Shown piece by piece: positions 38,643 through 40,012 of a stretch of 64,000 nt of DNA. This stretch comes from Thermoanaerobaculia bacterium (GTDB taxonomy: Bacteria > Acidobacteriota > Thermoanaerobaculia > Multivoradales > Multivoraceae). Positions within the stretch are counted from its first letter, which is position 1; every line of letters begins with the position of its first letter. A program made the position numbers and the translations under genes. A model generated the notes under the pieces. The model did no database searches, was not told where the DNA came from, and saw nothing but the letters and a program-made list of their open reading frames with translations. The stretch lies in assembly GCA_963666565.1 (NCBI GenBank), contig OY762911.1, positions 2,752,001 through 2,816,000 of the forward strand, in the 5' to 3' direction.

Positions 38643-38671
38643 TTGACACGCCGGCGCTCAGCGAGCACAAT
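38643..38671 (+). promoter_or_regulatory. Sigma70-type promoter of the lys leader
   Basis: TTGACA-17 nt-CACAAT. Confidence 0.7.
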
Positions 38672-38681
38672 CCCCGTTTCC

Positions 38682-38774
38682 ATGACTCAATCGACGATCA
38701 CACCGTCTCTGGTCAAGCCGCTGCACAAGCGGGGCGTGAAGCCCCGACTTCAGGACTGGGTGCCCATCGCCTAG
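38682..38774 (+). CDS. Putative lysine leader peptide (30 aa)
   Basis: [30 protein letters not shown] with three AAG Lys codons, between the promoter and a terminator upstream of homocitrate synthase. Confidence 0.65.
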
Positions 38775-38795
38775 AAACCCGCAGCGACACTTCTC

Positions 38796-38832
38796 GGCCG
38801 GCCATCCAGTTCAAGGATGCGCCGGCTTTCTT
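38796..38832 (+). terminator. Intrinsic terminator (attenuator) hairpin
   Basis: GCCGGC-CATCC / AGTTCAA loop / GGATG-C-GCCGGC followed by TTTCTT. Confidence 0.7.
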
Positions 38833-38851
38833 GTATCCGGAGGATCCCTCC

Positions 38852-40012
38852 ATGCCTTCCCATCCAGCCATCATCGAGTCGACCCTGCGCGAGGGTGAGC
38901 AGTTCGCCAACGCCTTCTTCGACAGCGACCAGAAGGTGGAGATCGCGCGCCTGCTGGACGCGTTCGGGGTCGAGTACCTCGAGTTGACCTCGCCAGCCGC
39001 GAGCCGCGGCAGCCGGCAGGACTGTCAGCGGGTGGCGAGCCTGGGGCTCCGCGCCAAGGTACTGACCCACACCCGCTGCCATCTGGACGACGCGAGGCTG
39101 GCGCTCGAAACCGGCGTCGACGGGATCGACGTCGTCTTCGGCACCTCCCGCTACCTGCGGGAGTACTCCCACGGCAAGAGCATGGAGCAGGTGATCGAGA
39201 CGGCGGTCGAAGTGGTCGAGTACATCCGGTCGCACGATGTCGAGGTTCGCTTCAGCACGGAGGACTCCTTCCGCAGCGATCCGGACGATCTGATCCGGGC
39301 CTACCGCGCGGTGAACGAGGTCGGCGTGAACCGGGTCGGCGTCGCCGACACCGTGGGCGTGGCGAGTCCGCGTCAGGTCTACGACCTGGTGCGTCAACTC
39401 CGCGAGGAAGTCGACTGCGACATCGAGTTCCACGGCCACAACGACACCGGCTGCGCGGTCGCCAACGCCTTCTGCGCGCTGGAGGCGGGTGCGACCCACG
39501 TCGACACGTCGGTGCTCGGAATCGGCGAGCGGAACGGCATCACGCCGCTCGGCGGCCTGGTCGCGCGGCTCTACGCCGAGGATCCCGAAGGCGTTCGGTC
39601 GCGCTACGACCTGCCGCTGCTGCGCGAGATCGAGAACTACGTCGCTTCCCTCGTCGAGGTCGACGTGCCGTTCAACAACTACATCACCGGCTACACGGCG
39701 TTCACGCACAAGGCGGGCATCCACGCCAAGGCGATCCTGAACGACCCGTCGACCTACGAGATCCTCGATCCGGCCGACTTCGGTCTCGACCGCTACGTCC
39801 ACGTCGCGCATCGCCTCACCGGCTGGAACGCGATCAAGTCCCGCGTCGAGCAGTTGCGGCTTGAACTGAGCGATGCGCAGATCAAGGACATCACGGCCCA
39901 CATCAAGGCGCTGGCCGATGAAAAGCCGCTCAGCCTGTCGGACGTCGACGCCCTGCTGCGCGAGTACCACACGGCGGAGTTGCTGCCGGCGGTGGCGGGA
40001 GCGGCCGGGTGA
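38852..40012 (+). CDS. hcs: Homocitrate synthase (Thermus/fungal Lys20 type)
   Basis: [58 protein letters not shown]. Confidence 0.92.

Follow-up and report, generated by a model that had tools for sequence, protein, structure and literature searches.

A 64,000-nucleotide stretch of the genome of a Thermoanaerobaculia bacterium (Acidobacteriota; contig OY762911.1, positions 2,752,001 to 2,816,000), called the window throughout, contains a predicted operon, hcs-hacA-hacB-hicdh, that begins with a homocitrate synthase gene (hcs). We find that hcs is preceded by a short open reading frame (ORF) with three lysine codons, by a terminator-like hairpin, and by an alternative pairing that excludes this hairpin. 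Together these elements probably form a ribosome-dependent leader-peptide attenuator, which would tie expression of the operon to the supply of charged tRNA-Lys. The argument draws chiefly on comparison: on the conservation of the frame and its Lys codons within the genus, on the joint change of the two strands of the antiterminator, and on leaders of the same kind before hcs in Chloroflexota.

Elements of the hcs leader

The window had been read earlier from its letters alone, and that reading (the original prediction) described a promoter TTGACA-17-CACAAT, a 30-residue ORF with AAG at codons 12, 16 and 20 (K12, K16 and K20), a CGGGGC/GCCCCG hairpin within the ORF (38730-38746, here P1), a terminator, and a 10-bp alternative pairing. 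Each of these is present where it had been placed (Table 1). The promoter is the sole promoter-like site in the 2.5 kb from 37500 to 40000, for which the shuffle mean is 0.1, and P1 belongs to the minimum-free-energy fold. The terminator hairpin has 12 pairs and is rich in G+C, with -16.3 kcal/mol for its 28-nucleotide (nt) core. The antiterminator joins GGACUGGGUG (38753-38762) to CAUCCAGUUC (38803-38812) through 10 pairs, 2 of which are G-U. One correction was made: the hcs ATG, earlier put at 38853, begins at 38852. The leader ATG sits 10 nt 3' of the -10 box, and the mRNA would therefore be leaderless or nearly so.

Lysine is a scarce residue in this host, at 1.82% of codons genome-wide. 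Three Lys within a stretch of nine codons have a binomial probability of 4.7e-4 for one such stretch, and three in 30 codons have P = 0.017. The predicted fold of the 185-nt leader gave z = -3.27 and was equaled by none of 200 shuffles; for the antiterminator duplex, the energy is -23.3 kcal/mol, compared with -16.6 +/- 2.9 kcal/mol in dinucleotide shuffles. P1 could possibly serve as a pause hairpin or as part of an anti-antiterminator.

Searches of the interval 37500-40000 with Rfam at permissive thresholds returned four matches (E 0.65-6.3), none of them within 38643-38854 and all far under the gathering scores, and the L-box (RF00168) had no match there at E <= 10. The leaders of six related loci likewise matched no Rfam family, riboswitches and T-boxes included, and Pfam had no match for the leader ORF or the overlapping frames on either strand.

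Conservation within the genus

HCS was found in all 24 congeners and in 1 of 16 genomes from other genera of the order, and within the genus the proteins are 88-97% identical. Once 14 exact duplicates and the truncated locus L054 had been dropped, 36 distinct upstream sequences made up the genus set. Leader frame and terminator occur in 26 of these 36 hcs loci. All 26 carry the promoter, in the form TTGAC(A/T)-N16-18-CA(C/G)AAT, as against none of the 10 leaderless loci, and in all 26 the frame starts with ATG and keeps the same end position. K20 is retained in every one of these leaders, K16 in 24 and K12 in 22, within a peptide of consensus ..SL(V/L)K(R/P)L(H/D/S)K(P/R)G(A/V/S)KP(R/W/L)LQ(D/N)W... 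Insertions inside the frame are all multiples of three (12 nt in L023, 30 and 24 nt in L025), and gaps after the stop measure 1-5 nt.

The other loci are of two kinds. In seven (L014-L018, L028 and L037) the terminator is kept, promoter and leader are absent, and the stop of the upstream gene lies 5-6 nt before the hairpin; in three (L021, L024 and L038) neither leader nor terminator hairpin is found. In the seven, the last codons of the upstream F420-type oxidoreductase gene (..CAGGGGCUGGUC or ..CAGGAGCUG..) could base-pair with the loop of the terminator. A ribosome finishing that gene would overlap the 5' arm of the hairpin, so that hcs may be read through by coupling in those seven congeners.

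Several individual loci show further features. The 24-nt insert of L025 duplicates AAGCC..CUGCAG to give ..SAKPRLQYCVKPWLQDW.., with the KP-LQ motif present twice. In L008, L009 and L032, a mini-frame of six codons (ATGATCCAG..TCATGA) has a TGA that overlaps the leader ATG, suggesting that the start of leader translation is coupled to the mini-frame there. A DNA contig from a related strain has 76 nt of 38604-38681, the promoter region, replaced by 133 other letters, and this replacement agrees with congeners in which 42-65 nt separate the upstream promoter from the leader ATG. Contigs of two metatranscriptome runs, from relatives at 88-95% identity, span leader, terminator and hcs, and two contigs from one metatranscriptome run start at 38667; such contigs show no ends, strands or levels and were not counted as evidence.

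Covariation of the terminator and antiterminator

The genus hcs leaders were aligned (alignment A1; 26 rows, 25 distinct). All 12 terminator pairs are paired in 100% of the 25 distinct sequences, with 1 compensatory pair. The antiterminator is paired in 96.4% of 250 cells, compared with 24-53% in slid controls, and includes 2 compensatory pairs, A-U to G-C in L023 and U-A to C-G in L042; 4 of 500 shuffles reached the observed antiterminator values. In L042 one position is altered in three strands, from U to C in the antiterminator, from A to G in the terminator 5' arm and from U to C in the 3' arm. P1 is paired in 86% of cells over the 25 distinct sequences, with no compensatory change.

Across groups, the terminator loop and its predicted upstream partner change together. 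The sets are GGACUGG with CCAGUUC in this genus; CCUGUCUG with CAGACAGG, or CCGUCUGG with CCAGACGG, in Caldilineaceae; GGUCUGGU with ACCAGACC in other Chloroflexota; and CGUCUGGA with UCCAGACG in L027, a locus from a second Acidobacteriota family of the order. An alignment-free test was made on 79 distinct leaders, with two leaderless duplicates excluded. In it, the 76 nt upstream were set against the cognate terminator half and against those of the other groups, each half being extended by 3 nt, and duplex energies were compared. For the hcs leaders of this genus, the cognate energy is -20.9 kcal/mol and the non-cognate energies are -13.6 to -15.4 kcal/mol; the corresponding values are -17.6 and -11.8 to -15.2 kcal/mol for Caldilineaceae, and -19.2 and -12.6 to -15.6 kcal/mol for L027. 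None of 2000 permutations reached the observed mean, a figure that is descriptive, as the relatives are not independent. In an earlier and weaker rank test, which included the two leaderless duplicates, the cognate terminator half ranked first among 23 variants in only 3 of 79 cases; the median rank was 1 for the genus hcs leaders, 6 for Caldilineaceae and 7 for lysW leaders.

Related leaders in Chloroflexota

The closest HCS proteins outside the genus belong to Caldilineaceae (Chloroflexota), at 74-82% identity. In this family 53 of 54 hcs upstream regions have a terminator ACCGGCCAUCCAGAC(A)GGAU..GCCGG-U6-8, whose 5' arm and part of whose 3' arm are letter-identical to those of the window. 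The letters CCGGCCATCCAG...GGATG.GCCGG are common to the two terminators, and CCGGCCAUCCAG is unchanged letter for letter in both phyla. On the 5' side of the terminator lies a leader frame that ends in (K/N)K(K/Q)SKK..PD. A strand (C)C(U)GUCUGG is complementary to CCAGAC(A)GG of the terminator, and CUUGCUC is complementary to the Lys codons GAGCAAG. RNAalifold, run on 51 sequences, recovered the terminator, the stem that involves the Lys codons, and an inner stem in which one pair shows 15 double changes.

A covariance model, R1, was built from 50 Caldilineaceae leaders (alignment A2) and L027, whose HCS is 62% identical and whose hcs leader contains TKKKQVKR. R1 matches the window at 38713-38833 over all of its positions (1-123), with 25.7 bits and an E value of 3.6e-4 in 79 kb, and the leader is its only match in the 64-kb window. 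When the whole host genome was searched with R1 this element was not recovered, and a search of 151 Acidobacteriota genomes gave 0 matches, which is uninformative as the window's genome was missed too. A search of Chloroflexota with R1 (151 genomes, including 150 others sampled evenly) gave 5 new matches. Two of these (L149 and L150) do not adjoin hcs and were dropped; 3 are hcs leaders (L148, L151 and L152), from loci with HCS 55-58% identical. The peptides of these three read MPISISKQVKRVKKPAHRSG and ..VKQNKQAKKPDERSG, and their terminator arm CCCGGCUCACCAGACC has the matching strand GGUCUGGU. Spaced Lys codons, which had been thought unusual, occur in these leaders as well (SKQVKRVKKP, VKQNKQAKKP); taken with L027, they make such spacing, and a Pro following the last Lys, appear as traits of the family.

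These comparisons support homology between the window leader and the Lys-run leaders found before the same gene in Chloroflexota. The adjacent Lys run (K-K/Q-S-K-K) and its CUUGCUC partner are absent from the window, where the pattern is K-x3-K-x3-K, and for this reason the window leader is filed as a diverged relative and not as a typical member. The Lys-run leaders are themselves well conserved before hcs in L052-L107, L148, L151 and L152 (Chloroflexota), have no Rfam match, and constitute a candidate new RNA family.

In a maximum-likelihood tree of HCS rooted by two paralogues, the genus and one record named Holophagae form a clade (99/100). This clade is nested together with Caldilineaceae in a larger one (92/94), from which L027 and the other Chloroflexota stand apart. 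Given also the rarity of HCS in the order, the tree fits a transfer of operon and attached leader between Chloroflexota and Acidobacteriota, which may have gone in either direction.

A second copy before lysW

The same genome contains a putative paralogous attenuator upstream of lysW-lysX-lysY-lysZ. LysW is encoded at G000:C1:3840512-3840697 and is followed by lysX, by an argC-type reductase gene (lysY) and by the [LysW]-aminoadipate kinase gene (lysZ). The leader has a promoter-like TTGACA-17-TAGCCT, a frame of 29 codons, MPVLLTSASTAPLAKGRRGGAKRPGQDPG, a CUGGAUG that overlaps the UGA of this frame, and the terminator GGCCGGCCAUCCAGAAGGAUGAGCCGGCC, to which R1 also has a partial match (22.6 bits). 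Hairpins of the hcs/lysW terminator type number two in the 4.79-Mb genome, both before lysine operons.

A survey of lysW in the genus covered 25 of 30 loci, with L119, L124, L126, L129 and L132 left out. It yielded 23 distinct leaders with terminator and 2 loci without an attenuator. The leaders have two Lys in 17 cases and three in 6; GAKR is present in 23/23 and the following Pro in 22/23. Three Chloroflexota genomes have lysW 4-6 kb downstream of a single R1 match and on the same strand, which points to one attenuator per cluster in those organisms. In a genome from another family of the order (G030), hcs and lysW are separated, and a lysW leader of 36 residues contains 7 Lys and has a terminator of its own. 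This leader (L155, on G030:C27), MGLAQPVVELRKQGKKKVEKKTEQKLDPGRGLFV, precedes a strong terminator with a U8 tract and corresponds, in Lys-rich form, to the Lys-poor leader found before lysW in the genus.

Proposed mechanism

The spacing of the elements was examined across the leaders. From the last Lys codon to the predicted antiterminator strand the distance is 11-13 nt in the genus hcs leaders; in the lysW leaders it is 16-19 nt, and Caldilineaceae mostly have 13-22 nt. In the window, the first base of K20 lies 13 nt before the first base of the strand. A stalled ribosome has a footprint with an established 3' edge, and the predicted distances fit that edge. The stop codon falls just before the strand, inside it, or up to 10 nt after it, the last being the case in the window. 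When nascent RNA extending to 38814 was folded with 31 nt around the A site blocked, 10 antiterminator pairs formed if any of K12, K16 and K20 occupied the A site, and 0 formed if the stop codon did.

We propose the following sequence of events. Transcription would start a few bases 5' of the leader ATG, and a ribosome would translate the 30-codon leader as RNA polymerase proceeds. When Lys-tRNA is scarce, the ribosome would wait with an AAG codon in its A site (K20 being the invariant one), covering the upstream part of the leader and leaving GGACUGGGUG free to pair with CAUCCAGUUC once this is made. The terminator stem could then not close, and polymerase would enter hcs. When lysine is plentiful, the ribosome would reach the TAG at 38772 and occupy the antiterminator strand, so that the terminator (38796-38827) with its U-rich tail would form and transcription would stop. 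In this scheme we infer the translation of the leader, termination at the hairpin, lysine as the signal, and whatever holds the antiterminator strand when no ribosome does. The original prediction had also proposed a switch between a stall at the Lys codons and arrival at the stop codon, and conservation, covariation and the masked folds (10 versus 0 pairs) argue for it.

Points against the model and alternative explanations

A number of observations weigh against an attenuator of this kind. The leader is absent from 10 of the 36 hcs loci in the genus and is thus dispensable. The Lys codons are few: three only, and dispersed, in the window leader, and two or three in the lysW copy. A Shine-Dalgarno sequence is lacking upstream of the leader ATG in all 26 leader-bearing loci, that of the window included, and the spacing between -10 box and ATG ranges from 10 to 65 nt. 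The U-tract CUUUCUUGU is interrupted, and a consensus terminator scan called 0 sites, passing over the window hairpin on account of the bulge and this interruption. In the window sequence taken alone, the antiterminator pairing is only modestly unusual, with 24 of 1000 shuffles matching its duplex energy, and the stronger support is comparative; covariation of the antiterminator within the genus amounts to two events, each in a single sequence, and one antiterminator pair is a C.A mismatch in 7 of the 25 sequences. In the lysW leaders, the cognate duplex (-14.9 kcal/mol) is no better than the non-cognate ones (-13.1 to -14.8 kcal/mol). R1 at E <= 0.01 found 5 of 24 leaders of the genus in a 248-kb search, so that its match is marginal. 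The complete RNA always prefers the terminator; in classical attenuators, the choice between terminator and antiterminator is kinetic. Untranslated nascent RNA also forms the antiterminator in its minimum-energy fold, and termination in the absence of translation is thus not predicted. Three candidate anti-antiterminators were considered and none was adopted: P2 (38756-38762 with 38768-38774), at 86.9% paired, had no compensatory change and was equaled by shuffles; a 1:2 helix (alignment columns 101-106 with 153-158) was 94% paired with 0 compensatory changes; and P0 (38719-38724 with 38781-38786) was restricted to the clade of the window, again with no compensatory change.

Other explanations of the locus were weighed against the same evidence. 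The switch could be real and be set by a trans-acting protein or small molecule at the hairpin GGGC-GCGAA-GCCC or at the CCAUCCAG loop, with translation of the frame incidental, although we regard this as unlikely. Such a factor would suit a leader without a Shine-Dalgarno sequence, and it would suit the letters of P1, GGCGCGAAGC, which are nearly free of synonymous change in hcs leaders and recur in the lysW leaders, while the preceding codon tolerates amino-acid change (A19 is replaced by V in L002 and by S in L007). It would also suit the identity of CCGGCCAUCCAG across two phyla. The invariance of CCAUCCAG, however, can be explained by its double duty in two helices. Frame, ATG and stop position are kept in 26/26 leaders with insertions in multiples of three, and Lys codons are common to all subfamilies despite a differing RNA context (a stem in Caldilineaceae, a loop here); both facts weigh against such a factor, as does the lack of any match to an Rfam family, riboswitch or T-box. 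A sensory arrest peptide, in which the nascent chain (..HKPGAKP.. or ..GAKRPG..) would stall on free lysine or another metabolite in the manner of TnaC and tryptophan, without codon supply as the signal, seems to us very unlikely. Lys-Pro is a slow peptide bond, few Lys codons are left, the segment LVKRLHKPGAKP(R/W)LQDW is strongly conserved, and the hcs and lysW leaders share G-A-K with a Pro that comes next or after an intervening Arg. Yet a stall at K20 under abundant lysine would leave the antiterminator free and switch the operon on at high lysine, the opposite of what a biosynthetic operon calls for. The conservation of the peptide also largely overlaps RNA pairing (QDWV corresponds to the antiterminator strand and GAKP to P1) and, given the small divergence within the genus, is weak evidence; the peptides of homologous leaders differ widely except for Lys codons and Pro.

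The locus might, finally, contain no regulator at all: the hairpin would be an ordinary terminator or insulator of the F420-type oxidoreductase gene, and the frame an accident of a genome with 70% G+C, where open frames of 30 codons are common (an estimated 0.5 or so per frame). The seven related loci that keep the hairpin just after the stop of the upstream gene, with neither promoter nor leader, are what this would predict, as are the 10 leaderless loci overall. We nevertheless hold it to be most improbable. The conserved promoter between the upstream gene and the hairpin places the hairpin inside the hcs transcript, and the 4.79-Mb genome has no hairpin of this type other than the two that precede lysine operons. 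The frame of the leader is conserved and covaries along with its Lys codons and the antiterminator, and homologous Chloroflexota leaders carry unmistakable Lys runs. A leader-peptide attenuator responding to charged tRNA-Lys is thus the reading that we favor.

Genomic context

The host genome is a single contig of 4.79 Mb. Near-identical hcs loci are found in public records named Candidatus Multivorans, Thermoanaerobaculia and Acidobacteria bacterium, and the lineage is uncultured. Of four sequencing runs compared with the stretch, those labeled sponge metagenome contain parts of it. The features of the locus are collected in Table 1. Downstream of the dehydrogenase gene, the frames at 43031-43348, 43352-43624, 43681-44037 and 44068-47124 had no NCBIfam match. 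In the predicted fold, GGAGG-AUC-CCUCC (38839-38843 with 38847-38851) closes over the hcs Shine-Dalgarno sequence, and letters resembling GGAGGA..CCUCC-AUG are present in most relatives; this hairpin might possibly provide a second, translational layer of control.

Table 1. Features of the hcs locus, in window coordinates, and the second leader of the same genome
Feature	Position	Strand	Remarks
F420-type luciferase-like oxidoreductase gene	37768-38607		upstream of the hcs leader; TIGR03619, 197.6 bits
Intergenic interval, oxidoreductase gene to hcs	38608-38851		houses the leader elements
Promoter TTGACA-17-CACAAT, sigma-70-type	TTGACA 38643-38648; CACAAT 38666-38671	+	10/12 matches
Leader ORF	ATG 38682 to TAG 38772-38774	+	30 codons
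Control codons AAG (putative)	38715-38717 (K12); 38727-38729 (K16); 38739-38741 (K20)	+	spacing 4 codons
Hairpin P1, CGGGGC-GUGAA-GCCCCG	38730-38735 / 38741-38746	+	within the ORF; in minimum-free-energy fold; K20 codon at apex
Antiterminator 5' strand, GGACUGGGUG(CCC)	38753-38765	+	leader codons 24-28 (QDWVP)
Antiterminator 3' strand, CAUCCAGUUC	38803-38812	+	in terminator 5' arm and loop
Terminator-like hairpin, 5' arm, GGCCGGCCAUCC	38796-38807	+
Terminator loop	38808-38814	+
Terminator 3' arm	GGAUG 38815-38819; bulged C 38820; GCCGGCU 38821-38827	+
U-rich tail, CUUUCUUGU	to 38834	+	after terminator hairpin
hcs ribosome-binding site, GGAGGA	38839-38844	+
hcs start, ATG	38852-38854	+
hcs (homocitrate synthase)	38852-40012	+	TIGR02146, 491 bits (cut-off 413.55)
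Homoaconitase large subunit	40009-41364	+	NCBIfam TIGR01343 / NF001614
Homoaconitase small subunit	41357-41953	+	NCBIfam TIGR02087 / NF010629
Homoisocitrate-type dehydrogenase	41961-42989	+	TIGR02088 / NF040626, below equivalog cut-offs
Predicted regulated operon hcs-hacA-hacB-hicdh	38852-42989	+
Putative paralogous attenuator (locus L113/L143)	G000:C1:3840246-3840470		upstream of lysW-lysX-lysY-lysZ

Discussion

Classical leader-peptide attenuators control the trp, his, thr, leu, pheA and ilv operons of Proteobacteria, and attenuators of this kind have reportedly been described in Actinobacteria as well. The hcs leader resembles the classical ones in its short ORF with end-product codons, its in-leader hairpin, its terminator-like hairpin before the first gene, and a predicted, mutually exclusive antiterminator whose 5' strand would be covered by a ribosome at the leader stop. 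It differs in that it would sense lysine through control codons that stand 4 apart and not in a run, has no Shine-Dalgarno sequence and an ATG only 10 nt from the -10 box, lacks a well-defined region 1:2 helix, and belongs to an acidobacterial lineage.

Lysine biosynthesis is usually under the control of an L-box riboswitch or of proteins, and most bacteria sense lysine by the L-box. The L-box (RF00168) controls lysine biosynthesis genes through a terminator, as the leader described here would, but the window has a conserved frame in place of the large conserved aptamer. To our knowledge, lysine leader-peptide attenuation is documented only for Thermus: the hcs cluster of Thermus thermophilus is reported to be controlled in this way (J Biol Chem, 2005). 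That leader reportedly precedes the first gene of the same pathway and has Lys codons in its peptide ahead of a terminator, but is shorter, with adjacent Lys codons.

The hcs leaders of Caldilineaceae are closer in detail. They too stand before hcs, with the terminator CCGGCCAUCCAG...GGAUG.GCCGG, a CUGG strand that pairs with CCAG of the terminator, and a last Lys codon 11-22 nt before this strand that is followed by Pro. They are distinguished by a length of 17-22 codons in the commonest forms, by the (K/N)K(K/Q)SKK..PD ending with Lys codons that pair with CUUGCUC, and by a perfect U-tract (U6-8), in contrast to the broken one of the window. Their stop codon immediately precedes the antiterminator strand or, in some leaders, immediately follows it, whereas the window frame runs 10 nt past it. 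One attenuator also appears to serve the whole cluster there, lysW included, whereas the host of the window has a second copy for lysWXYZ.

Judged by sequence, the Lys-leader logic is a family in at least two further phyla, with 50 Caldilineaceae loci, three in other Chloroflexota and two Acidobacteriota families. Full-text searches of the literature, together with passages of PMC2965389, gave no description of a lysine leader family in Chloroflexota or Acidobacteriota, and Rfam 15 has no model for one. The family is apparently uncatalogued, although the mechanism itself is textbook. The original prediction's remark that the element was unfamiliar in this lineage stands insofar as no description was found; the element nevertheless appears to be shared with Chloroflexota and not to be an invention of the lineage.

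A more far-reaching scenario may be sketched, which we consider speculative and rather doubtful as a whole. In it, a Lys-run leader would have been reduced, in this lysine-poor lineage of 70% G+C, to essentially one invariant sensor codon, an AAG that stands at the tip of the conserved hairpin and has Pro after it (GAKP in hcs leaders, GAKRP in lysW leaders). Its sensitivity would derive from the structure of the mRNA and the slowness of the Lys-Pro bond, and not from the number of codons; the operon would have carried the attenuator along between Chloroflexota and Acidobacteriota, and copies of the attenuator would wire two separate operons into one lysine regulon.

For the annotation of uncultured bacteria, the leader family would provide a well-conserved and easily modeled cis-regulator of the aminoadipate pathway. 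Its members also offer natural variants that bear on the minimum of control codons, including tandem and spaced Lys codons, stops before and after the antiterminator strand, and loci that have lost the leader. Finally, the hcs locus of this genus looks like a case of a regulatory leader traveling with its operon between phyla.

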